Assembly: GCA_016432365.1 (NCBI GenBank)
Contig: CP066686.1
Coordinates: 355-64,354 of the forward strand
DNA: 64,000 nt
From: Candidatus Woesebacteria bacterium
GTDB taxonomy: Bacteria > Patescibacteriota > Microgenomatia > UBA8517
Direction: 5' to 3'
The notes below the pieces were generated by a model. That model did not search any database. It saw only the letters and a list, made by a program, of their open reading frames with translations, and had not been told where the DNA came from. Both the position numbers and the translations under genes were made by a program. The first letter of the stretch is position 1; each line of letters opens with the position of its first letter. Shown one piece after another: positions 1 through 39,985 of this stretch.

Positions 1-403
1 AGTTTACGACCCGAAGGCCTTCATCCTCCACGCGGCATTGCGACGTCAGACTTTCGTCCATTGCGTACGATTCCCTGTTGCTGCCATCCGTAGATGTAAG
101 GGCCGTGTCTCAGTCCCTTTCTGCCCGTTTCCCCTCTCAGGGCGGGTACCCGTCATAGGCTTGGTAGGCCATTACCCTACCAACTACCTGATGGGAGATA
201 GGCTCATCCATCGGCGCGCAGTGAAGCGCTTTTCCCTTGCGGGGTCATGCGGTATTAGCTCATCTTTCGATGAGGTATTCCACACCATTGGGGAGATTCC
301 TATCCATTACTCAGCCGTTCGCAACTCGTCCCTTGCGGGACTCGTTCTACTTGCATGCATAAGGCATGCCGCCAGCGTTAATCCTGGGCCAGGATCAAAC
401 CCT
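1..403 (-). rRNA. rrs: 16S ribosomal RNA, 5' ~400 nt; the gene continues beyond the left edge of the window
   Basis: The minus strand of 383-403 reads GAGGGTTTGATCCTGGCCCAG, matching the universal 16S 5' end AGAGTTTGATCMTGGCTCAG. The minus strand of ~330-382 reads AACGCTGGCGGCATGCCTTATGCATGCAAGT, matching the GAACGCTGGCGGC...CATGCAAGTCG block. There is no credible ORF (38..511 is spurious). The 338-region at 72-96 is diverged from ACTCCTACGGGAGGCAGCAG, as in many CPR lineages. Confidence 0.85.
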
Positions 404-890
404 CAAAAAGCGTCCTACATAGCCTTACGGCGACGTGGGACAATCCTGATTTCCCGATCACATACTGAATTCCAATACATTCATACAAATAATATGAAAG
501 CCCTTCCGTAGCCGTCCGAAGCTTTAAGCGTAGGATGGCGAAGGAGGGTCGAACTCAATACATATTCCAGCCTGCTAAGGACTGGTCGTCTCATCAATTT
601 CGCACAGAGATTGAGAGACAATTTTGATTAACCTAAAATCTTTGACTTTTAATGTGCCTAGTCAAAAGTAACAAAACTCAAGCTAAAACAAGGCAGAAAA
701 ACAATACTTAACTAAATAAACTGTGGCTTTTCTTTGTTTACAACTTGAGGTTTGGTACTTTTAATGAGCTTGCTCTGAAATCCTTCCGAAGCTCGTTAGA
801 GCGTAGGAAGATAAGGTTCTAAAATGGAGAGTTATCAATCCCTCGTAGCTTCATGCGGAGTGGGACGAGTCAACTTCATCGTGTAGGGGT

Positions 891-2014: not shown

Positions 2015-2293
2015 TCATTCTCCCCCAAGTCCGGGAACATTGTAAGAAGCCTCAATGTATATATCTCCGATATTTTGTTTTTGTTCTTCTGAAAATTCCA
2101 CCTCATCGTCATATTTAACATAGCAACCAATCTCATTGAGGATTCTGGAAATTAGCTCCGGATCTGCTTCCCTACAAAAAATCACACGTGCCTGCACATC
2201 TCGGCCGGTAACCAATTCCGCCACCAAATAGGACTTCCCGGAAACTTCTGAAAATTCTTCATCGACAACTACTCCAACTTTATTCTCGACCAT
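2015..2293 (-). CDS. Small acidic hypothetical protein (92 aa) ending ...NVPGLGGE
   Basis: ORF first in a tight minus-strand run (2015-4310). The C-terminal G-L-G-G-E is reminiscent of Ubl precursors, which is speculative. Confidence 0.45.
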   Translation of the reverse strand: MVENKVGVVVDEEFSEVSGKSYLVAELVTGRDVQARVIFCREADPELISRILNEIGCYVKYDDEVEFSEEQKQNIGDIYIEASYNVPGLGGE

Positions 2294-6442: not shown

Positions 6443-6703
6443 TCAACTACTATGCCGATTGGAACTGTTCAGTTCCTGCTCAAATACTGCGTAAAAACGC
6501 AGCCAGCCTTGCGGCATACCGGAACGCAGGTCAGGAAAGACCGAACAACTGACAAGTCGGTAACCCTGGGCTGACGTAGCAGCAAGAAAAACGCTCCAGG
6601 CCTTACCTTGATCTTTTTTGTCTCCATCAATGGTGTCTATCAACATCGGGCCGATCGGAGACTGGTGTCCCGAAACTTCCAAGTGCTCAAATTTCTTTGA
6701 CAT
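6443..6703 (-). CDS. Small hypothetical protein (86 aa), paralog of 7871..8113
   Basis: GGAGG RBS. It shares WSVFLAA..GYRLVSCSVFPD..GW.RFYAVF with WTQFLAK..VTMVGYSVIPAPD..GWYRMHATF in the paralog. GC is about 50%. Confidence 0.6.
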   Translation of the reverse strand: MSKKFEHLEVSGHQSPIGPMLIDTIDGDKKDQGKAWSVFLAATSAQGYRLVSCSVFPDLRSGMPQGWLRFYAVFEQELNSSNRHSS

Positions 6704-6734
6704 ACGTCCTCCAAATAGTTAAATGCTTGACCCT

Positions 6735-7685
6735 TTAAAGTCTTGGATCAGCCAGATAAACACTTACCGTGTCGCCGGCTTCAATCTGGGAGTTGCATGT
6801 AGAATGTGTCGCATCGTCATCTCCAATGGTCAACTTTAGTACTTCGGGAGGCCAAATATTATTATCAATCTTTCTCCCAAGCACAGTAAGCGCAAATGGA
6901 GTTAGAACTTCTGTTGCGCTTCGACCAATCAATGCTGCCGTTTGAAACGCATAGAGAAATTGACTGTAACCACGGCGGACAAAAATCTTTTCGCCCCTCA
7001 ACAGTCTATGGTCTGTACAATCTCCTTCTCCGCAACGCGGACAAATGACCACATCCGAAGGCCTGATTTTCAACGCTCGGGAGATTTGATCGTCAAGCCA
7101 TATTTGCCCGGGCAAATAGCCGACAATCCGTTCGTCTGTGTATGGGCCGAGCAGTTTTTCCTGGAATACCTCCAACCTAGCCATATCTTCAAAGGCATGT
7201 AGACTTCCTTGCCCATGTTCTTCGCCGTCCGACAGTGCAACAACTACGTCGCCGCTTCCCAACCTATCCCAAGGCGCAGAATCAGCCTCCTTACCGTTAA
7301 CAAACACCCGTGCCAGTGCCAGGTCATCTTCACCGGTAAGTTTCTCCAAAAAAGAACTGAGTGATTGACCAGAGTCGCTAAACACAATGTTTTCAACGTT
7401 AAGGTGGTTAAGTCCAATTGGAGCGGAATATTCTGTCCAAAGACCTTTTTGTGTTTTGGTTAACCCCAACACTCCGGTTTTGGACAACGTATGCGCACGG
7501 GCAATCCGCGAAATTTGTTCTTCCGTAAACTGTCCCTTTGTTCGGAAAAAATTTCCGCCGGGTGTTGACGGCTTCCTAACCAAATATATTCCTACAACAT
7601 CCGATGTGGCCCGTCTCGCAATTGAATCAACAAAAACAGCAATTTCAGGGAAATCCCGTTCAAGGTTCTTTCCTTTTGTAAACAT
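6735..7685 (-). CDS. Hypothetical protein (316 aa) with ThiS/MoaD-like beta-grasp segments and a CPRCG-x3-DC-x-DH motif; paralog of 13638..14954
   Basis: GGAGG RBS and elevated GC. The C-terminal ~100 aa align with the C-terminus of the 438-aa protein (VICPRCGEGDCTDH...FVRR...LYAFQ...GDTV). Confidence 0.6.
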   Translation of the reverse strand: MFTKGKNLERDFPEIAVFVDSIARRATSDVVGIYLVRKPSTPGGNFFRTKGQFTEEQISRIARAHTLSKTGVLGLTKTQKGLWTEYSAPIGLNHLNVENIVFSDSGQSLSSFLEKLTGEDDLALARVFVNGKEADSAPWDRLGSGDVVVALSDGEEHGQGSLHAFEDMARLEVFQEKLLGPYTDERIVGYLPGQIWLDDQISRALKIRPSDVVICPRCGEGDCTDHRLLRGEKIFVRRGYSQFLYAFQTAALIGRSATEVLTPFALTVLGRKIDNNIWPPEVLKLTIGDDDATHSTCNSQIEAGDTVSVYLADPRL

Positions 7686-7716
7686 TTGTTCCTCCGATCA
7701 GATTTTAAGCCGAAAT

Positions 7717-7763
7717 GTGCAAACTATGGGGATTATAGACTTTTTGACTATCCAATTCCAGTT
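7717..7763 (-). promoter_or_regulatory. Repeated promoter/5' leader element, copy A, carrying a perfect -10 TATAAT
   Basis: This 47-nt element is identical to 8141-8187. On the minus strand it reads ...TGGAAT-17nt-TATAAT... about 45 nt upstream of the ATG of 6735..7685. Confidence 0.5.
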
Positions 7764-7796
7764 CACCTAAGCCCGACAGCCCCGCCAAAAAAATAG

Positions 7797-7853
7797 CACC
7801 TGGGAGCAGTGATTGTATAAAACAAATCAATGCCGCCAGGCGCTTTTGTTGTT
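7797..7853 (-). terminator. Rho-independent terminator (cassette B), repeat copy 2
   Basis: Same hairpin and T-run as 6378-6436, placed just 3' of 7871..8113. Confidence 0.55.
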
Positions 7854-7870
7854 TGCGTGTCGTGTCGACC

Positions 7871-8113
7871 TTATCTGTATTCAGGCACCCTGAAAGTTGC
7901 GTGCATCCGATACCAGCCGGGTCCGGGGATCTGGATATCAGGAGCAGGAATAACGGAATACCCAACCATCGTCACATTATTTGCTTCCTGTTTTGCAAGA
8001 AACTGAGTCCATGTCTGGGCATTCGCCGCCTTTTCCTCTTTACCGTCAACCATTGTGACAACAAATTCTTTACCGGGCGCAGCAAGGCACCAAACTTCAA
8101 AATATCTACTCAT
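7871..8113 (-). CDS. Small hypothetical protein (80 aa), paralog of 6443..6703
   Basis: GGAGG RBS. It is flanked by the repeated promoter element on the 5' side and the repeated terminator on the 3' side. Confidence 0.6.
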   Translation of the reverse strand: MSRYFEVWCLAAPGKEFVVTMVDGKEEKAANAQTWTQFLAKQEANNVTMVGYSVIPAPDIQIPGPGWYRMHATFRVPEYR

Positions 8114-8140
8114 ATCTACCTCCGAGAATATAGGAATTGT

Positions 8141-8187
8141 TTGAAAACGTGCAAACTATGGGGATTATAGACTTTTTGACTATCCAA
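8141..8187 (-). promoter_or_regulatory. Repeated promoter/5' leader element, copy B
   Basis: Identical 47-mer to 7717-7763; the TATAAT lies about 47 nt upstream of the ATG of 7871..8113. Confidence 0.5.
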
Positions 8188-8540
8188 TTCCAGTTTTTTT
8201 CCTGCCCCCAAATCCCCATTGAATTTTCAGGTTCAACTTTGGCCTCCAAGAACACCGTGTTAAATTTCATTTTTGTTTTCTGTTTGTAAACAAGCGTTTG
8301 TGAGGAAACCGCGAGAAAGTTTCCACAAACCCCATCAAAACTGCACCTAGAAATTTTAGCTTTTTGAGCGAGGGATACACCAAACTGACCGAAGGGAATT
8401 TGGTGAGGGCGGAGGCTCCCCGGCAAAAAGCGTTAAGAAATTTCTGGATAAGTTTTGTAGGGGCACCCTTTCATCTCCATTCTTTGGGTGCGCAAAGAAT
8501 GGAAAAAGTGTGTTCTAGGAGGCAAGAAATTGGTAAAAAT

Positions 8541-8924
8541 TTACTTTGTTTTTAATTCCAAAATATCTTCAGGTCTAAAAAAACCAATTGTTTTTTCAGT
8601 TCTACTATCTAAAAATAAATAAGACCTTTCTCTTATCGCCCCTACCCGCATCGAAAGTTCGGGTGAAGACTCAAACACTATTGAATAACCATCAACACAT
8701 CCATGCCTGAAGGCAACTGTTCTAATTATAGGGAGCTCACTGGTTCCAAATTTATCCAGCACTTCCCTTTTGACCTTAAGTAACAAACCTTCCGTTGCCA
8801 AGGCCACCGTAATCGCCTCACTCACTCTTGCCAAATATTCCTTAGAATCAGGCATTTTCTGCCATGAAGAAAGGGCGTTTGTAAGTTCAAGATTTAAATG
8901 CGATTTGTTTTTGTCGCGTTCCAC
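8541..8924 (-). CDS. Hypothetical protein (127 aa), weak paralog of 9738..10142
   Basis: Both start MERD. and share the ..WQ..P(D/E).. and ..FRPE(D/H)I.. blocks. Confidence 0.5.
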   Translation of the reverse strand: MERDKNKSHLNLELTNALSSWQKMPDSKEYLARVSEAITVALATEGLLLKVKREVLDKFGTSELPIIRTVAFRHGCVDGYSIVFESSPELSMRVGAIRERSYLFLDSRTEKTIGFFRPEDILELKTK

Positions 8925-9037
8925 CGTTAAAGAGTGTAAAGGGGATAAGACAAATAATCAAACACCAATATCTGGTATAATCTCCCCGTTTGAACCAATT
9001 CGGGTTCAGGCACATTCACAATCGGAAGGAGGCTTGA

Positions 9038-9673
9038 GTGAAAGAAATACTCGCGTTCACGGGGATTTGGGTAGTACTGACCGTCGCAATGCTTGTCCAC
9101 GAGCTTGGACATGCCCTTGTCGCAGGCGCCCTTGGAGAAAAAGTCGAAGAAATTTCCCTGGGTTTACCAAGATTGTTTACTTTCAAACTGTTTGGGATAC
9201 CAGTCAGAGTTGGGCTACTTCCATTAATTGGAGGCACGAAACTCGACAGCCTACTCAAAATGCGTTGGCTCAAAAAAGCGGTGATTGCACTATCGGGCCC
9301 GGTTTTTAACTTTGCCTTCGCTCTGTGCTGCTACTACGCCGTCGGTGGATTTGACCAAATCGCAAGTCTTGCCGAAGACCAATTTTTGGTTATCCCAACT
9401 GTTAAGTCCTTTTTTGGCAACGAGAGTTTACCCACTCCGGGCCTCACAGCTTTGTTCGCGTCCATGACACCAAAGAATGTCATCTTCGCAATTGGAGACA
9501 TCAATCTACTGTTGGCCATTTTGAACATGCTGCCAATTCCTGTGCTTGACGGTGGCAGAATTCTGTTCGCGTTCTTGGAAGGTGTATTTGGAAAGGTTGT
9601 TAACAATATACAGGCCATTCTGATACCGATATCGTTCATCCTGCTCATACTGTGGCAAGTATTAATAAAATGA
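9038..9673 (+). CDS. Site-2 protease family (M50) intramembrane zinc metalloprotease
   Basis: HELGHAL (HExxH) sits in TM1 and a downstream LDGG motif is present; the protein is polytopic. Confidence 0.75.
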   Translation: MKEILAFTGIWVVLTVAMLVHELGHALVAGALGEKVEEISLGLPRLFTFKLFGIPVRVGLLPLIGGTKLDSLLKMRWLKKAVIALSGPVFNFAFALCCYYAVGGFDQIASLAEDQFLVIPTVKSFFGNESLPTPGLTALFASMTPKNVIFAIGDINLLLAILNMLPIPVLDGGRILFAFLEGVFGKVVNNIQAILIPISFILLILWQVLIK

Positions 9674-9679
9674 AGCGTT

Positions 9680-9728
9680 GTGGGTGATCACTGGTAGCGA
9701 AATCTACTCATATCACCCACAGTTTTTA
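9680..9728 (+). terminator. Rho-independent terminator after the M50 protease gene
   Basis: GTGGGTGAT - 23 nt - ATCACCCAC followed by AGTTTTTA. Confidence 0.5.
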
Positions 9729-9737
9729 TCACCAAAC

Positions 9738-10142
9738 TCACCTGACGATAAACGAATCGATCTCATGAGGTCTAAAAGCCGCCATCCATACACGTTCACC
9801 TTTGCGTCCCTCAAAGATTAAAAGATGGGGCTGATCCCCTACACTTCTGGCGAAAATGCGGTATTTGCCATTTTCAGTACTGGTCCTAAAACGAAAGGTG
9901 TAAAGGTCATCTTTCTTTTTTGCAAGCCTAGCAATGTCAGTTAGTTGCATTGCCCGTCTCCCTTCACTGTTTTCAAAAGTTTCTGCTTTTATATTCAAAT
10001 CTAAATTTAATCCCATTTGATTGGTTGTAGAAAACAAACTGTTTATTTTTGCCATTGCCACATTGTTTTCCGGAAAACTTTGCCAGTAAAAAAGTGATGC
10101 TCTGAAGTCCTTATTAACCGCGTTAATTCTATCTCTTTCCAT
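9738..10142 (-). CDS. Hypothetical protein (134 aa), weak paralog of 8541..8924
   Basis: See 8541..8924. Confidence 0.5.
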   Translation of the reverse strand: MERDRINAVNKDFRASLFYWQSFPENNVAMAKINSLFSTTNQMGLNLDLNIKAETFENSEGRRAMQLTDIARLAKKKDDLYTFRFRTSTENGKYRIFARSVGDQPHLLIFEGRKGERVWMAAFRPHEIDSFIVR

Positions 10143-10379: not shown

Positions 10380-10418
10380 TGTAGGTAGATTGTCCCAGGA
10401 AGTATTTCAGAAGTCAAA

Positions 10419-13125: not shown

Positions 13126-13524
13126 TTACGATTTACCATTCTCTATTAGTTTTGTCTGTGCGAGCTTAGAGATTGTAATAATCCTAGGGTCATTATGGTC
13201 GGCCAAAAATTCGATTGGTTCGTCGTGATCCTCAACCCATGCTGCAAGCGCCTTAGGCGATACCTCAAAAAGAACATCAACAATGGCGCTACAAACCTCT
13301 ACCGTCTGAGTCTCTGTATTTCGACTGATTCCAAGATCGTCCAAATGGGATGCAAGAAGAATCTGGCTAATGGATCTTTTTTGGGCATCCTCTGTGCCAC
13401 GCGGTGGTAAATGAGAAGTAAACTGTGAGACTCGGTCGTCCTTTCTAAAAACTTTATACCAGTGAATATAAAGTGCTCTCACTGCTTCTGAAATGGGACT
13501 TAGTGCGGTTACATTTTCCTTCAT
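13126..13524 (-). CDS. Hypothetical protein (132 aa)
   Basis: ORF only. Confidence 0.45.
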   Translation of the reverse strand: MKENVTALSPISEAVRALYIHWYKVFRKDDRVSQFTSHLPPRGTEDAQKRSISQILLASHLDDLGISRNTETQTVEVCSAIVDVLFEVSPKALAAWVEDHDEPIEFLADHNDPRIITISKLAQTKLIENGKS

Positions 13525-13637
13525 GACTGATATTATATAGCCATCTTAAAGCAAAATAAAAAGCCCATCTCTCTCTTCAAATTGAAGAAAAAAATGGGCT
13601 TTACAGTCCTAACTACTTCTGAAGAAGCAACTGAGAC

Positions 13638-14954
13638 CTATTTGATCACGATCTTGACGGTGTCACCGCTGCGGATACTTTTCGAACAAAGAACCCGTTC
13701 GGTATCAACGCCGTTGATCTCAATTACAGCCACCTCATTCGGCCAATCCAGATTCCGAACCTTACGACCGATGACAGCGGGGGCTAGTGGAACCAGCTTG
13801 TCAGTCGCGTTGCCGCGCAGATCCGCCTGGAAAGCGTACAGGAACGAGTCCTGGCTATTGCGCCGAACGAAAACAAGACTTCCCTTGGACAGGTTGTGAT
13901 CGGAACAATCCGGTTTGCCACATCTCGGACAAATAACGTTGTCGTCAACGTCCAGATCAAGCGCAGCGCTCAAATCGTCGTCCATAAACAAACCGAGAGG
14001 TGTGTTGCCGGCAAAACCAGGGAGGGTGTACGGGCCGTCGAGAACCGCCTTGTAGACCATAACGGTCGGCATTTCGGAAAATTCGAGTCCGTCATCCACT
14101 GTTCCGCCGCGATCAGAAACCGCAACCGCCACATCACCGAGACTGAAACTGTCTTCACGGCTGATACGGAAATCGAACGTACTCTTGGGAACTTCCATAC
14201 CATTCACATAGTAGTGATTGGCATCAAAGAATCCGTTGACGATGGTTCGAACGATACTGTGGTTGACTGCAAAGTCGAACATGTGCTGATCGACAAGCTC
14301 AACGCTTCCGTCAGCAGTATCCGTGGTGTACTCGGTCCACTCACGGTTTGTTTTACCACGACTCCCAACTTTCACACCCGCGATACGCATAAGTTGCGCA
14401 ACCTGGGCGGAGGTCGGATTGCCGCGGTAGCGGAGGAGCTTCTTGCTCTTGGCCCGGCCATTGACGCGGAAAGACAGTCCCCAGACGGCTTTGTCCGAAA
14501 TGGATGTCTGAGCGTCGGCGGCTTTTGCAATCTCGGGATACATGCGATAGAGATCGGTCGGCTCCCCTTTCATGGTTTCCAGAGCCTGGACAAAATCTTC
14601 CACCTGTGGAGAGGTATCCCATTTGTCCGAAAACTCGAGACCGAAATCCCGCGAGTTGTGAGGTCGGCTGAATTCGATCTTGTTGCCACCCGCGCTAAAG
14701 GGCTGGAAAACGAAGTCCCCACCCCTGTTGAAGCGATCAGTCAAGCCGGCAAGATTCCGCTTCGAAAACTCGAACTCTTCGACGGTTCGGCCGTCATACA
14801 AAAGCGAGATGGTGATGCGGCCGGCATTTTGGCTGAGAACAATGGTCCCACGATCGATTCTCCCACTTGGCCTTGTCGCGCTCCTGGCGTAAACATTGTC
14901 AATTTGAACACGATTCGGTCCGTTGGTATTTTTGAACATGGCTGCCTCCTTCAA
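13638..14954 (-). CDS. Hypothetical protein (438 aa) with repeated ThiS/MoaD-like beta-grasp segments and a CPRCG-x3-DC-x-DH motif; paralog of 6735..7685
   Basis: High-GC island of about 55%, so the antisense ORF 13896..14975 is an artifact. The C-terminal ~100 aa align with the C-terminus of the 316-aa protein. VNG...GD.V.V..GG-like segments are present. Confidence 0.6.
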   Translation of the reverse strand: MKEAAMFKNTNGPNRVQIDNVYARSATRPSGRIDRGTIVLSQNAGRITISLLYDGRTVEEFEFSKRNLAGLTDRFNRGGDFVFQPFSAGGNKIEFSRPHNSRDFGLEFSDKWDTSPQVEDFVQALETMKGEPTDLYRMYPEIAKAADAQTSISDKAVWGLSFRVNGRAKSKKLLRYRGNPTSAQVAQLMRIAGVKVGSRGKTNREWTEYTTDTADGSVELVDQHMFDFAVNHSIVRTIVNGFFDANHYYVNGMEVPKSTFDFRISREDSFSLGDVAVAVSDRGGTVDDGLEFSEMPTVMVYKAVLDGPYTLPGFAGNTPLGLFMDDDLSAALDLDVDDNVICPRCGKPDCSDHNLSKGSLVFVRRNSQDSFLYAFQADLRGNATDKLVPLAPAVIGRKVRNLDWPNEVAVIEINGVDTERVLCSKSIRSGDTVKIVIK

Positions 14955-15109
14955 AGCAGAATTGCAAGAATCTGAATAGAAAAATAGGCTATGCTTCTTT
15001 ATCTTGTAACGAGCAAGCTCATTGAACCTGCGTAGTATACACCTTTCTAGTCAGGAGTCAACTTATAGTATTTATGAAGAGGCTTAAGAAGAGGTCAAAT
15101 TTTCTGTTT

Positions 15110-16330
15110 TCAGCCTACAAAAGTCAGGGCAATGCCTTTTTTGTCCGCCCTACCCGTTCTTCCGATTCTGTGAATATATGCCTCGTAAGATTCGGGTAAA
15201 TCATAGTTAATAACGTGGCTAACATTGGGAATATCCAGGCCTCGGGAGGCAACATCGGTTGCTATTAAAATCTGAATGTTGTTTTGTTTAAAAGAGGCCA
15301 GGGTTTTTATTCTTTGGCTTTGATTCTTATTTCCATGAATAGCATCGGACCTAAATCCACGTTTGACCAGATCGTCCGACAGCCGTTGTACTCCATGCTT
15401 AGTTCTGCCAAAAATCAGAACTTTTTCGAATTCTTTTTGAATAAGAAGTTGGTGTAACTGTTCGATTTTTTTGGCGGGGTCTCCTACTCTTATTGTCTTT
15501 TGTTCAACATTGGCAGCCGTGTCCCCTGTTTTTACAGAAACTGTTACTGGGTTATGTACAAAACTCTGCAATATTCCGCGCACAGCTTCGTCAATTGTCG
15601 CCGAGAAGAAAAGGGACAAACGTTTTGTTGGAAGAAGGGAAATCATATATTTGATGTCGTGAATGAATCCAATGTCCACCATATGATCTGCCTCGTCTAA
15701 AACTACCGCGGAAAAACGGGATAAATCTAAGTACCTGTTTTTGATCAAATCTGTAACCCTGCCTGGTGTACCTATTACAAAATTCGGGTTGCGACGTAAA
15801 CTGTCTATTTGTCTGCCCATGCTGGCTCCACCAATTAAAAGAGCTGCATAGATTCCAAGTCCGTCTGCAAAAACAAAAAGCTCATCTTTAATTTGCGATG
15901 CAAGCTCACGTGTTGGGGCCATAATGAGAACTCTAAAGTTCCTATCGGCCAACATTTTATTAACTAATGGAATCAAAAAGGCAGCAGTTTTACCCGTTCC
16001 GGTATTGGCAATTCCAATTAAATCGCGTCCTTCAAGGATTGCAGGTATAGCTTTATCTTGCACAGGAGTTGGGGTCTTGTAGCCATGCTTTAGAATGTTT
16101 GCTTTCAAACGTTCATCAATGTTAAAGTCGGCAAATGCATGAGTCGGAACATACTCTTCTTGGGTAACAGAAGTTACATTTTGAGGCAGGTTGTTAATAA
16201 CCTGGGAAGGATCGAATGTCTTGATTCTCCTAACCCCACGGGAAGATGCGCCACCACGGCTGGCTAAATTTCCACGAAGAAATCCCCTCTGCGGGCCTCT
16301 ACGATTTGGCTTAAATCTATTGTTATACAT
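15110..16330 (-). CDS. DEAD-box ATP-dependent RNA helicase
   Basis: Q-motif, GTGKTAAF (Walker A), LDEADHM (DEAD), SAT and HRIGRTGRA are all present. There is an N-terminal Arg/Gly-rich extension. Confidence 0.85.
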   Translation of the reverse strand: MYNNRFKPNRRGPQRGFLRGNLASRGGASSRGVRRIKTFDPSQVINNLPQNVTSVTQEEYVPTHAFADFNIDERLKANILKHGYKTPTPVQDKAIPAILEGRDLIGIANTGTGKTAAFLIPLVNKMLADRNFRVLIMAPTRELASQIKDELFVFADGLGIYAALLIGGASMGRQIDSLRRNPNFVIGTPGRVTDLIKNRYLDLSRFSAVVLDEADHMVDIGFIHDIKYMISLLPTKRLSLFFSATIDEAVRGILQSFVHNPVTVSVKTGDTAANVEQKTIRVGDPAKKIEQLHQLLIQKEFEKVLIFGRTKHGVQRLSDDLVKRGFRSDAIHGNKNQSQRIKTLASFKQNNIQILIATDVASRGLDIPNVSHVINYDLPESYEAYIHRIGRTGRADKKGIALTFVG

Positions 16331-16769
16331 GGGTAAAGGGAACAGAACTGCTTAAAGAAAAATTACATTTGGGCCTAGTGAAGAAAAAGATACAAATAAT
16401 ATATAAAAATACTTGGGGTACCTATTTTCTTAAAAACTAAACTTTAAATATTAACTAAATTTAAGCAGATCTATTACCTCTGACCTGCTAACAATGTGAA
16501 GTATACCACACCCAACCTGGGATGTCAAGTACTACAGGGTATTACCTCGATTCAGGCCAACGCCTTGATGATTGCTTCCCTTATATTTTTGCCTCCAAAC
16601 CAGCCTTTTAGGTATACCGTAGCATGCTTATTCCTATTCCAGTCATGAAGATAATACTTATCTATCCTGCCGCCTTTTTCTATAAGGATCTCAACTAGCC
16701 GTGCAAACGAAAGTGAATTGTTGATTTCTTATTATACCACAAAACAAGACCCAGAAGTTTATTGGCCAA

Positions 16770-17246
16770 CTACTGAAACACTATTTTTGCCAACTTTGCA
16801 TAAGTTGCGGCGATATCCAGTACGTGCGCGCTTACCATGTTTGTGTGAAGCCTCAACATGGCTATTGCTTTCCAGTCACTCAAACGTTTTAACTCAAAAT
16901 ACAAAGGATCGGATATTGAAACCCTGGACATGTATTTGAGTAATTCTTTTTCGTCTTTTGGTTCTTCAAGATCTTTTACCATTTGCGGATGCGCTTCCCT
17001 AAACGCCTCATAATCTTCGTGAGCCTTTAGGTATCTCGGAAACTCGGGGTCGTTTAATGCATCCTCAATACCTTCCCTCAGATTTTTATGATCAAAATAA
17101 TCCTCAGGATCGTGATTAATCAAATAATTTGCTGACACCTCCTTTACCGCAGCTGTCACTTTGTCCTTATCCAGTTCCCAATCCTGAAGTCGTGGTTCAG
17201 AATAAACAACAACACCCGACTCCGAACTGTTATTACGATCTGTCAT
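16770..17246 (-). CDS. Hypothetical acidic protein (158 aa)
   Basis: ORF only. Confidence 0.45.
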   Translation of the reverse strand: MTDRNNSSESGVVVYSEPRLQDWELDKDKVTAAVKEVSANYLINHDPEDYFDHKNLREGIEDALNDPEFPRYLKAHEDYEAFREAHPQMVKDLEEPKDEKELLKYMSRVSISDPLYFELKRLSDWKAIAMLRLHTNMVSAHVLDIAATYAKLAKIVFQ

Positions 17247-17280
17247 GCATAGATTATATCAAACGCATTTCCAAATTCTT

Positions 17281-18180
17281 TCATTGTTTTCCCACAAAAT
17301 ACCCACCTACATAACTCGTTACATTTTCAGATTCTTTTCCACTTATATCAAATGAGTTTAGATTAGAAACCAACTTAAAGTCGGTATTGGTATTTTTTAA
17401 ATAGCCAAAAAGAAAAGCTGTACACTGTTTGCAATCATTTGTGATTAATCCCACATCCTCCAATCTTTTACTTGGCAATAAATCAATACTTTTTTGATCG
17501 TTTAATTTAGCATTTTCTACCGATGTGTAATGAGAAAAATCGCTACTTATGATCAAGGCAGTTTGATTTAAATTGACCATTCTTGAAACTCTTTCTCCTA
17601 ATTCATAAAAATATTTATAATCATTATTTTGTCTCAAAACCAATGGAACAACTTTTGTTTGAGGTAGCGATTTTTTAGCAAAAGGAATTAAAGTATATAT
17701 TCCGTGTTCAGATCTAAAAGTATTCATATCTAAGACAACCCGCTTCTCCCCTAAAATTCTATCTATCAATTTTCCTTCACTTTCCATTTCACCAAAAGGG
17801 GTTTGCCACGTGTTATTTGTAGTTTGAACATTAACCCCTGTTCCGGTAATTTGTTTAAAATGATCCGGCGAAATAATTATCACAGTTTTTAACTGTGTTG
17901 GATCAATCCCTGAAAATGTCTGCGCAATCAAATCTTTTGCCAAAAAATGGTGACTTGTTATAGCCGCCAATACTTTACTTTTTGATACTTCTTTAGATTT
18001 TGCAAAAGAATCTTCGTAGTCATTAACATTAATAAAATAACTTTCAAGAAATTCACTTTGCGGTTTTGTGTTTTTTACAGTTGTTCTATTAAATAGAATT
18101 GCTACAAACAATATTATTGAGACAAAGGCGAAAAAGATTTTTGTTTTTGTGAAGTTCACTTGTAAAGAGATTGACTCCAA
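17281..18180 (-). CDS. MEMO1/AmmeMemoRadiSam-B-like protein with an N-terminal membrane anchor
   Basis: ITSHHF...IISPDHF...SSDFSHY His-motif spacing resembles the Memo-like (class III extradiol dioxygenase-like) family. N-terminal TM helix. Confidence 0.45.
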   Translation of the reverse strand: MESISLQVNFTKTKIFFAFVSIILFVAILFNRTTVKNTKPQSEFLESYFINVNDYEDSFAKSKEVSKSKVLAAITSHHFLAKDLIAQTFSGIDPTQLKTVIIISPDHFKQITGTGVNVQTTNNTWQTPFGEMESEGKLIDRILGEKRVVLDMNTFRSEHGIYTLIPFAKKSLPQTKVVPLVLRQNNDYKYFYELGERVSRMVNLNQTALIISSDFSHYTSVENAKLNDQKSIDLLPSKRLEDVGLITNDCKQCTAFLFGYLKNTNTDFKLVSNLNSFDISGKESENVTSYVGGYFVGKQ

Positions 18181-21711: not shown

Positions 21712-22524
21712 TTAAAAACTAACCGAAATTGTAGAAAGAACAGCTTTAGTCATCTCGTGCAATTCCCTTCCAGAAAAAACACTCTCCTTAATATCTGTAC
21801 CTCTAAGAACTTTCAAAGCTTCTTGCATTCCTTGCCCATTAAACACATCCGACTTAAGTAAGGATTTTGGTCCATGGACCAAACGGCCTCGAGGAACTGC
21901 CAGGGTTACCTTGAGATCATGACCAATCTTTATACCACCATTTTCTTTTACAAAACCCAATCCATTTCGTTTGAGTTCTGGGTAGGGGATTTTTTTTGCA
22001 TCTTCTATGGCACCCTTTAGATTTGTAATGAAACTTGCAAGTTGGCGGACCTCCCGATTGCCTAAAAACCCTGCTTTTGCTTCCACAACTTTGGTAATAT
22101 AACCCGCCTGAGTAATACCCAAAAAATCAGGATTGGATAAACTTTCTCTTCCCTCATCAGTAAACCGAAACACCCCCGGATTGGCAAGCAAAGTCCTCAA
22201 CCTCTTCGCCTCTTCAGCCTCTTCAAAACAAATCTTAAAGTCGGACCGGACCAAAAGTTCAAATAGCGCGCCGGCTACTAAAACCTCAGGGTCAACCACA
22301 CCATCTCGTAAATAAGTATCCGCGCTCACGGCTCCTATAATTTCAGTCTCGGAATCAGAAGGTAATCTGGCAATTACAAGCTGTTGAGCGTTCCAAATTT
22401 CGTCACCAATTTTTTCCTCTCTATGGTACTCCAACAACGTTTCTTTTAACACAAATTTCAAGTCTGGTTTTTGTGTATGTTCTTTCTTAGAAGGTTCCAT
22501 AAGTAAGTTATACCATTTTTTCAA
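21712..22524 (-). CDS. Hypothetical protein (270 aa)
   Basis: ORF only. Confidence 0.5.
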   Translation of the reverse strand: MKKWYNLLMEPSKKEHTQKPDLKFVLKETLLEYHREEKIGDEIWNAQQLVIARLPSDSETEIIGAVSADTYLRDGVVDPEVLVAGALFELLVRSDFKICFEEAEEAKRLRTLLANPGVFRFTDEGRESLSNPDFLGITQAGYITKVVEAKAGFLGNREVRQLASFITNLKGAIEDAKKIPYPELKRNGLGFVKENGGIKIGHDLKVTLAVPRGRLVHGPKSLLKSDVFNGQGMQEALKVLRGTDIKESVFSGRELHEMTKAVLSTISVSF

Positions 22525-25602: not shown

Positions 25603-26283
25603 GTGGCTTTCAAACCATCAGGCGGTTTTTTGTGGCTAAATTTCGGCCCTTTTGATATAATTTCATTTGTGGATAAACTGTTTAGTTTCCTTGGAGCAAG
25701 AAAAGACAGAGAAACAAGTATCGAAATCTCTCTAACCCCAGGTGCTTCAGACCATCTGAAACGTATGATATTGCGTCCAAACCCCGAATTAGCTGAGTTT
25801 GGTTTCTTTGGACTCGGGCAGAATGGAACGATCGATCAAATATTAGACTTGGACGAAAAAGATCTATCGTATAAAAATGGGCTCACCCACAGTCTTGGTG
25901 GTTTCAGCTCAAATGTTGGTGGCAATGAGTGGAATGGGTTAGTTCAAAAATTAATACAATCAGGCAGAAGAGGAGATTTCCTTGTTTTTGGACATTTCCA
26001 CCCAAGTGGAACGAAAAGAATTGCTGGGGCAACTTATCACATTGATCCAGGCGAGGCCCTTCTAGTTCCATCCGGGGGTAGCTTAAGAGATCCAACCACG
26101 GGTGGAGATATTGGATTTTTCAAAGCATTAACGGAACTTAATCCAAATTTAGTCCCATATATGGGTATTGCAGCCAACACCAAATCTGGTCCAAAACTTA
26201 GAATTTATGAAATCGATAAGTTAATTAAAATTAGACGTTACAACGATATTGACCATGTCCCCCAAACCACAATCGACCTGTAA
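25603..26283 (+). CDS. Hypothetical protein with a weak JAB/MPN-like H-x-H-P-S-G signature
   Basis: GDFLVFGHFHPSG resembles the JAMM/RadC core (E..H.HP.SG) but the downstream S..D is not evident. The start may be an internal Met. Confidence 0.35.
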   Translation: MAFKPSGGFLWLNFGPFDIISFVDKLFSFLGARKDRETSIEISLTPGASDHLKRMILRPNPELAEFGFFGLGQNGTIDQILDLDEKDLSYKNGLTHSLGGFSSNVGGNEWNGLVQKLIQSGRRGDFLVFGHFHPSGTKRIAGATYHIDPGEALLVPSGGSLRDPTTGGDIGFFKALTELNPNLVPYMGIAANTKSGPKLRIYEIDKLIKIRRYNDIDHVPQTTIDL

Positions 26284-39745: not shown

Positions 39746-39985
39746 TTAAACTGCTGGAGGTGTTTGCGGGGGCATTCCTGCTCCTGCGTCTCCCGTTCCT
39801 TCAGTTGGTGTAGGTGTCGGCATTACCGGAGCTTCTGGCTCTGGCATTACTGGCTCAACAGGAGCTGGTGTTCCCACCGGCATTGTTGGTTGTTCTACAA
39901 CTGGCGTTGCAGGTGCCTGAACAGGAGCGTTCGGGTCTGCCGCTGGAACTGTTGGACTAACCGGATTTTGTGCGTTTGGATCCAT
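39746..39985 (-). CDS. Proline/alanine-rich low-complexity protein (79 aa)
   Basis: ORF starting 3 nt after the trxA stop, with a GGTGG RBS-like sequence. The antisense ORF 39764..40048 is an artifact. Confidence 0.35.
   Translation of the reverse strand: MDPNAQNPVSPTVPAADPNAPVQAPATPVVEQPTMPVGTPAPVEPVMPEPEAPVMPTPTPTEGTGDAGAGMPPQTPPAV

Follow-up and report, generated by a model that had tools for sequence, protein, structure and literature searches.

Two divergent paralogs of a small Woesebacteria protein family with predicted ThiS-like beta-grasp domains and a four-cysteine knuckle

The BilA/BubA "Ubl2/Ubl3" proteins of the Bil/Bub operons are bacterial ubiquitin-like proteins (Ubls) which carry several beta-grasp domains (PMC11601603), and proteins of the mlr6139 type carry three Ubl domains (PMC1779556). 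Both are encoded in operons together with E1, E2 and peptidase genes and have a glycine at the C-terminus, either from the start or after processing. In proteins of the TM_0779 type a Ubl domain is combined with a Mut7-C RNase and a zinc ribbon (PMC1779556). In the 64,000-nucleotide stretch of the Candidatus Woesebacteria contig CP066686.1 analyzed here (in the following the window), two genes on the minus strand encode proteins of 433 and 316 amino acids (aa), which belong to one protein family. In analogy to the Bil/Bub and mlr6139-type Ubls, several ThiS/ubiquitin-like beta-grasps are predicted within one polypeptide, and an unrelated domain may stand in front of them. Unlike these, however, the family has no terminal glycine, the long gene stands alone and a cysteine-rich knuckle is located between the beta-grasps. 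With the TM_0779-type proteins the family shares the combination of a ubiquitin-like beta-grasp and a cysteine-rich, here predicted, metal-binding element in a prokaryotic protein that is probably not conjugated, but Mut7-C/PIN is missing and a single 12-residue knuckle plus one distal cysteine takes the place of the zinc ribbon. Unlike ThiS, MoaD, Urm1 and SAMP, the family shows no match to PF02597, no GG tail and no adjacent ThiF/MoeB, and its modules are embedded in proteins of 316–433 aa. The architecture (optional Whirly-like domain, ThiS-like beta-grasp, four-cysteine knuckle, second ThiS-like beta-grasp) is absent from every profile library searched. The explanation we prefer, with a confidence that falls somewhat short of even, is that two real genes code for paralogs which have diverged within a very small orphan family, that these proteins are non-conjugated, metal-stapled tandem beta-grasp scaffolds and that the long copy was acquired horizontally.

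Both open reading frames (ORFs) named in the first-pass annotation of the window are present on the minus strand (Table 1). The longer one had been placed at 13638..14954 with 438 aa; the ORF is real, but its start is likely the ATG at 14939 and not the TTG at 14954, since the former matches the database proteins P0001 and P0021 and the N-terminus of the homolog P0002. QQG41700.1 and the 316-aa protein are identical, and the 433-aa protein shares a 90% cluster with QQG41710.1; at NCBI both records are labelled "hypothetical protein" from Candidatus Woesebacteria, and they lie on a contig of 1,078,985 bp. BLASTP comparison of the two gave 33% identity over 313 aligned positions (E 7e-41), corroborating the proposed paralogy. 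A shared C-terminal module of ~100 aa had been described, and this part is indeed homologous; the homology is far longer, however, as the BLASTP alignment extends over the entire 316-aa protein and residues ~133–436 of the long ORF. An antisense ORF of 359 aa (13896..14975, plus strand) lies within the 433-aa gene. As conservation amounts to only 24–36% in the antisense frame compared to 52–57% in the sense frame, we concluded that this ORF most probably arose as an artefact of the high GC content in this part of the window.

The family is very small. When 1.84 billion representatives were searched exhaustively with an HMMER profile, 18 clusters were returned at E <= 1e-3 (15 of them at E <= 1e-30), while word-indexed searching of 5.8 billion proteins yielded only 4–5 matches and a third search of this kind brought no further relatives. 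Most members are ~315–325 aa long and consist of the core only, whereas six carry an N-terminal extension of ~120 aa. According to a related-loci search with a 5-sequence alignment, only 2 GTDB species representatives and no viral contigs carry the family, and all named records bearing it are labelled Candidatus Woesebacteria, i.e. Patescibacteria or Candidate Phyla Radiation (CPR). Searching 19 members against Pfam up to E <= 10 gave no match beyond Zn_ribbon or zf-AN1 at E 0.04–0.3 in one or two members, and the ThiS family PF02597 was found in none of the 19. Neither of the two window paralogs matched PHROGs, PADLOC or NCBIfam. Furthermore, sequence searches of the PDB with the long protein, the whole-family profile and profiles of the separated domains gave no match, ThiS and MoaD included.

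The fold of the long protein was predicted with AlphaFold2 (AF2). Based on an alignment of 19 sequences the model reached a predicted local distance difference test (pLDDT) value of 84.6 at a predicted template modelling score (pTM) of 0.48, which is consistent with a multidomain protein; an alignment of 5 sequences gave a pLDDT of only 43.8. The beta-grasp boundaries listed in Table 1 were assigned from the order of secondary-structure elements in this model. At the level of the model, both the middle and the C-terminal segment can be assigned to the ubiquitin-like beta-grasp fold of the ThiS/MoaD/Urm1 superfamily. Profile comparison with hhalign aligned the middle domain to a ThiS-family Ubl encoded in sister Woesebacteria genomes (probability 52%, E 1.5e-4, score 26.9 over 55 columns), whereas 100 column-shuffled profiles reached a maximum score of 19.5. 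The C-terminal domain aligned to the middle domain (probability 44%, E 2.4e-4) and gave no signal against the ThiS-family Ubl in hhalign. No signal was obtained in the internal-repeat tests either, when the N-terminal domain or the segment at the start of the core was compared with the other segments. Support for the beta-grasp at the sequence level is thus modest, yet above the controls. Since the hhalign score of the middle domain exceeds those of the shuffled profiles and the AF2 model has the expected order of elements, the ThiS/MoaD-like segments postulated by the first-pass annotation can be retained, and no phage structural protein appeared when Foldseek was run against PDB and BFVD. 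The "VNG ... GD.V.V" segments on which this proposal had been built are present. Of the GG said to follow them, the copy after the middle GD.V.V exists in the long window protein (..SDRGG) and in P0002, but it is internal and not C-terminal, P0003 has GR instead and the site is unconserved in the short subfamily, where only P0004 and P0010 have a GG at a nearby position.

The N-terminal domain is restricted to the long subfamily. Owing to its predicted (beta4-alpha)x2 topology and structural similarity, it can be assigned to a Whirly/PUR-like fold at the model level. Foldseek returned only weak matches (PH-like, SsgB and OspE in the PDB, SsgA-like in BFVD), all at E >= 5.7e-4. Compared to proteins with the Whirly/PUR/MRP1-2/SsgA-like fold the domain has only 7–12% identity and no family-specific motifs, and it is fused to beta-grasps. 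Its net charge varies between -4 and +5 across the members.

The CPRCG-type motif announced for both proteins was recovered as CPRCGKPDCSDH in the long protein (residues 337–348, window 13896..13931) and as CPRCGEGDCTDH in the short one (residues 215–226). No third copy of the pattern CP.CG...C..H appears when the window is translated in all six frames. C-x2-C-x4-C-x2-H is kept, with minor spacing variants, in nearly all members which retain the region, and the histidine is replaced by glutamate in one member. A fourth cysteine, likewise conserved across the family, is located in a loop of the C-terminal beta-grasp 70–73 residues downstream of the knuckle. As these four conserved cysteines are the only ones in either window protein, a metal-binding element is plausible, and the pattern argues for a Cys4 or Cys3His metal site which would tie the knuckle to the C-terminal module. 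The zinc ribbon proposed earlier has to be modified accordingly in one respect: the cysteine-rich element as such is plausible, but two beta-hairpin knuckles with CxxC/CxxH pairs 10–30 residues apart, as in a classical zinc ribbon, were not found. Instead, one CPxCG is followed four residues on by C-x2-H, with a single short strand predicted by AF2.

Exactly four conserved cysteines (C-x2-C-x4-C ... C) beside or within a beta-grasp would also be compatible with a redox or iron-sulfur protein, in which the 3+1 cysteines bind a [2Fe-2S]-type cluster or a rubredoxin-like iron, and the beta-grasp fold is a known scaffold for iron-sulfur clusters (PMC1949818). Three of the cysteines, however, precede strand 1 of the C-terminal beta-grasp and are outside the ferredoxin cluster loop, and their spacing is unlike C-x4-C-x2-C-x29-C; the plant-type [2Fe-2S] arrangement (C-x4-C-x2-C-x~29-C in the loop after helix 1) is not present in the family. 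Moreover, the CPxCG motif is typical of zinc or rubredoxin knuckles and the neighbourhood contains no redox partners. With respect to these points we regard an iron-sulfur function as very unlikely.

Together with the beta-grasp segments, the first-pass annotation had taken a small GG-containing protein and a JAB-like motif as signs of a Ubl-type system in the window. A Ubl or sulfur carrier that can be conjugated ends in Gly-Gly or Gly, and no member of the family has a C-terminal Gly or GG, the ends being ..KIVIK, ..ADPRL, ..VVLRR and similar. A Bil/Bub-type operon would contain a ThiF E1, an E2 and a JAB or DUF6527 peptidase, and the neighbouring genes in the window encode no such domains. 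The small "GG" protein (2015..2293, 92 aa) ends in ..GLGGE and its ortholog in ..GLGEE. The 226-aa ORF at 25603..26283 (plus strand) contains the string HFHPSG...PSGGSLRD, reminiscent of RadC/JAB-type motifs, and no sequence match was obtained in Pfam, PHROGs, NCBIfam or PDB. Neither of the two was supported as part of a Ubl system. Evidently, with no glycine tail, a monocistronic 433-aa gene and no E1, E2 or JAB detectable in the 64 kb, such a system could not be corroborated for the window.

In sister Woesebacteria (related loci L001–L004 and L014), on the other hand, a four-gene insertion was found between the DUF2207 gene and a 78-aa gene, whose components are given in Table 1. By comparison with the described Bil-like cassettes (PMC11601603), this insertion looks like a Ubl conjugation or defence cassette in CPR bacteria. 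It represents an indel, being absent at the syntenic junction of the window; tblastn with the E2-like, JAB, ThiF and Ubl proteins gave no match anywhere in the 64 kb, and the cassette is also absent within +/-10 kb of the family genes in six other loci (L008, L012, L015, L021, L022, L023). The insertion lies upstream of the short-form ortholog, at a distance of 2.7 kb in L001–L004 and of 6.5 kb in L014. This closeness in two genomes is explained by shared synteny.

These data bear on the alternative that the family is a component of Ubl conjugation. Its members would be modifiers or precursors of the poly-Ubl type that an E1 activates, perhaps once a JAB peptidase has cleaved the linker following the middle beta-grasp (long clade: ..SDRGG). 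In line with this, ThiS/Urm1/MoaD-like beta-grasp modules are present, triple-Ubl proteins have precedent (PMC1779556), a JAB/ThiF/Ubl-GG cassette lies upstream of the short-form ortholog in sister genomes and a disordered linker is predicted after the middle domain (pLDDT < 50 at residues 280–283). Apart from the missing C-terminal glycine, however, the internal GG is unconserved, the cassette brings its own single-domain Ubl and is lacking from the window and the six other loci, the co-location reflects synteny and the 433-aa gene is monocistronic. We therefore consider a role in conjugation distinctly unlikely. Still further removed is the idea of a new Ubl precursor or partner in CPR bacteria, in which a JAB cuts the linker and frees a "Whirly-Ubl" modifier that is conjugated by E1/E2 encoded elsewhere, e.g. 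in a Bil-like cassette, or in which the intact protein acts as a non-cleavable Ubl decoy regulating the cassette. This must be viewed as a long shot; if a link to the Bil-like cassette were true, bacterial ubiquitin-like signalling would be extended to ultra-small symbiotic bacteria.

According to its flanking signals, the 433-aa gene is a stand-alone promoter–gene–terminator unit and thus predicted to be monocistronic. Its base composition is foreign: the GC content is 0.53 and that of third codon positions (GC3) 0.60, compared to a window median GC3 of 0.37. For the 316-aa gene values of 0.47 and 0.41 were obtained, so that GC3 is near background and the excess resides at codon positions 1–2, i.e. 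in the amino-acid composition. Sharp high-GC islands had been claimed for both genes, together with acquisition from a high-GC donor. Both statements fit the long paralog, but not the short one. The closest long-form relatives are also raised in GC3 (0.50–0.52 versus 0.33–0.37), whereas distant long forms are not clearly raised. Furthermore, the long gene occupies a gene-replacement hot spot (13476..15113) between a DEAD-box helicase gene and a 132-aa gene, where L002 (768-1961) has an unrelated 247-aa gene whose product shows no homology to the 433-aa protein; in L006 a long-form ortholog is present at the same site, there split in two. Because of the raised GC3, the replacement hot spot and the HTH_17 excisionase-like neighbours of distant long forms, the sequence data point to horizontal movement of the long form, without a mobile-element hallmark beside the long gene in the window, where neither an integrase nor repeats or att-like direct repeats were seen on either side of it. 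An upstream 373–385-aa membrane protein together with a 124–129-aa protein was considered as a conserved operon partner of the long form and dismissed, as the pair occurs only in two closely related contigs and not in the window.

Mobility of this kind raises the question whether the proteins are cargo of a conjugative or phage-related element and serve its biology instead of the physiology of the host. They might, for example, handle DNA by means of the knuckle and the Whirly-like domain, or act in anti-defence. In three genomes the long clade has a foreign GC3, which would agree with such cargo, as would the replacement at the hot spot. The long form P0013 adjoins genes for an HTH_17 excisionase-like protein, an SLT lytic transglycosylase, an S49-like protease and a VirD4/TraG-like ATPase, the long form P0018 lies near a 65%-identical HTH_17 gene, and Peptidase_U49 (Lit-like) genes are found beside family members in L006 and L019. 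Furthermore, the Whirly/PUR fold often binds single-stranded nucleic acid. Homologs are nevertheless absent from 50,697 phage records, 72,556 plasmids and IMG/VR, no PHROG matches and BFVD contributes only the weak SsgA-like domain matches. In addition to the missing element hallmarks around the window gene, the short subfamily is syntenic and compositionally native and the proteins are not basic overall. A role as mobile-element cargo is thus unlikely.

Returning to the preferred explanation, the tandem beta-grasp scaffold, we envisage a shared core of ~310 aa in which a small alpha/beta segment is followed by a ThiS-like beta-grasp, a linker with a hairpin, the CxxC-x4-C-x2-H knuckle and a second ThiS-like beta-grasp. 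One metal ion, most likely zinc, would be held by the four cysteines and perhaps the conserved histidine, and this ion would staple the knuckle onto the C-terminal beta-grasp. The protein would then serve as a non-covalent scaffold or adaptor which binds a protein or nucleic-acid partner, rather than as a conjugatable tag or sulfur carrier, and the long form would have gained its Whirly/PUR/SsgA-like domain at the N-terminus. The short copy appears to be a resident gene of an orphan-rich stretch with conserved synteny that lies upstream of the 16S rRNA gene, while the long copy presumably came in by horizontal transfer, at the replacement hot spot that adjoins the DEAD-box helicase gene, and is probably transcribed alone. 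Three points weigh against this explanation. Neither a characterised homolog nor a functional neighbour that is consistently conserved points to the bound partner. The family proteins are overall mostly acidic to neutral, and nucleic-acid binding is therefore not favoured. Finally, the absence of E1, E2 and JAB genes covers 64 kb of a 1.08-Mb genome, and such genes may sit elsewhere.

The beta-grasp (ubiquitin) fold itself is well known, whereas the architecture described here is new to the profile libraries searched and would add a case of ubiquitin-fold modules outside conjugation. The family occurs in CPR/Patescibacteria, a lineage whose genes mostly have no known function, and it draws attention to a variable, orphan-rich stretch upstream of the Woesebacteria rRNA locus which in sister genomes also houses the Bil-like E1/JAB/Ubl cassette.

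Table 1 Positions of the two family genes, the predicted segments of the long protein and further features (window coordinates unless a locus is named).
Feature	Position	Strand	Remarks
Long-form gene, 433 aa, QQG41710.1 / HYV90_00115	13638..14939	minus	likely start ATG at 14939; stop codon 13638..13640
N-terminal domain, residues 1-125	14565..14939	minus	predicted (beta4-alpha)x2, Whirly/PUR/SsgA-like fold; long subfamily only
Start of conserved core, residues 126-198	14346..14564	minus	two helices, then beta-beta-alpha (predicted); motifs DL.R.YP.IA, GN.FR.KG; no fold assigned
Middle ThiS-like beta-grasp (predicted), residues 199-277	14109..14345	minus	WTEY hairpin, helix, YYVNG, GDVAVAVSD; order beta-beta-alpha-beta-beta-beta
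Linker region, residues 278-332	13944..14108	minus	acidic/Gly flexible linker, beta-hairpin with F.EMP...VY...L.GPY, two short helices (predicted)
Metal-binding knuckle (predicted), residues 333-350	13890..13943	minus	D.VICPRCGKPDCSDH; C337, C340, C345, H348
C-terminal ThiS-like beta-grasp (predicted), residues 351-433	13641..13889	minus	VFVRR, LYAFQ, helix, IEING, C418, GDTVKIVIK; no terminal Gly
Sigma-70-like promoter match	15034..15061	minus	TTGACT-16-TATACT, 10 of 12; consensus match only; upstream of 433-aa gene
Terminator-like hairpin	13560..13602	minus	20-bp stem, then T run; 36 nt past 433-aa stop codon
Short-form paralog gene, 316 aa, QQG41700.1 / HYV90_00065	6735..7685	minus	core only; knuckle at 7008..7043
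16S rRNA gene, 5' part	1..410	minus	truncated by window and contig start
Multi-copy orphan family, 127-150 aa	1556..1981, 8541..8924, 9738..10142	minus	three window copies; no Pfam match
Partner gene of 127-150-aa family, 72-79 aa	10143..10379	minus	directly upstream of one copy
Two paralogous ~80-86-aa proteins flanking 316-aa gene	6443..6703, 7871..8113	minus	W..FL....GW.L....P...GW.R..A.F
Bil-like cassette of sister genomes	L002:5222-7616 (also L001, L003, L004); L014:1153-3557		corresponding window junction 10380..10418
Cassette gene 1, 298-300-aa protein, called E2-like			HPH...C string read by eye; no profile match
Cassette gene 2, 181-aa JAMM/JAB protein			RPN11 match, E 0.006
Cassette gene 3, 220-aa ThiF (E1)			E 1.5e-15
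Cassette gene 4, 79-80-aa ThiS-family Ubl			ends GG, or GGQK in L014

The neighbours of the two genes in the window are cellular (DUF2207, M50 peptidase, DEAD-box helicase, Memo-like protein, DUF3160, class I methyltransferase, 16S rRNA and tRNA genes); as, furthermore, megablast gave no match, a phage origin of the window was ruled out. Wherever the flank is sufficient, family genes are located 0.5–13 kb upstream of the rRNA locus, which was recognised by 16S-like sequence in the window, L008, L012, L014 and L015, and in L023 LAGLIDADG intron genes downstream of the family gene were taken as its sign. Outside the window the distance amounts to 0.5–10 kb, and LAGLIDADG intron genes are located at the rRNA locus in sister loci. 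The region around the family genes is rich in small orphan genes. In L005 the pair of 127–150-aa and 72–79-aa genes stands directly downstream of a long-form homolog; in L002, L012 and L014 it is found close to family genes, and L006 has only the larger member. Homologs of the ~80–86-aa proteins follow the short-form gene in L002 and occur ~0.8 kb downstream in L019, and similar-sized, possibly related genes stand after the short-form gene in L014 and L015; the ~80–86-aa protein may be an operon partner of the short-form gene.

In L008 (also in L009) the long-form gene of P0013 is located between two gene groups, one at 6615-9702 with the S49-like protease, SLT, HTH_17 and small genes, and one at 13651-17876, beyond a 16S-like stretch, with a 715-aa, a 311-aa and a VirD4/TraG-like (DUF87, TrwB) gene. 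These groups may form a conjugative or secretion-related island. The Peptidase_U49 genes are found at L006:3702-4085 and L019:2-109, on two unrelated contigs. The 247-aa protein at the hot-spot site of L002 is a distant paralog of the product of window 21712..22524. At 39798..39890 (plus strand) ARAGORN called a 93-nt tRNA-Arg(TCT) for which Rfam made no tRNA call at the gathering threshold, so that it is either atypical, intron-containing or a false positive. Finally, three tandem paralogous ORFs of 139, 179 and 112 aa at 28035..29420 (minus strand) share 31–51% identity and have an unusually high GC content of 0.49–0.58 at codon position 2.

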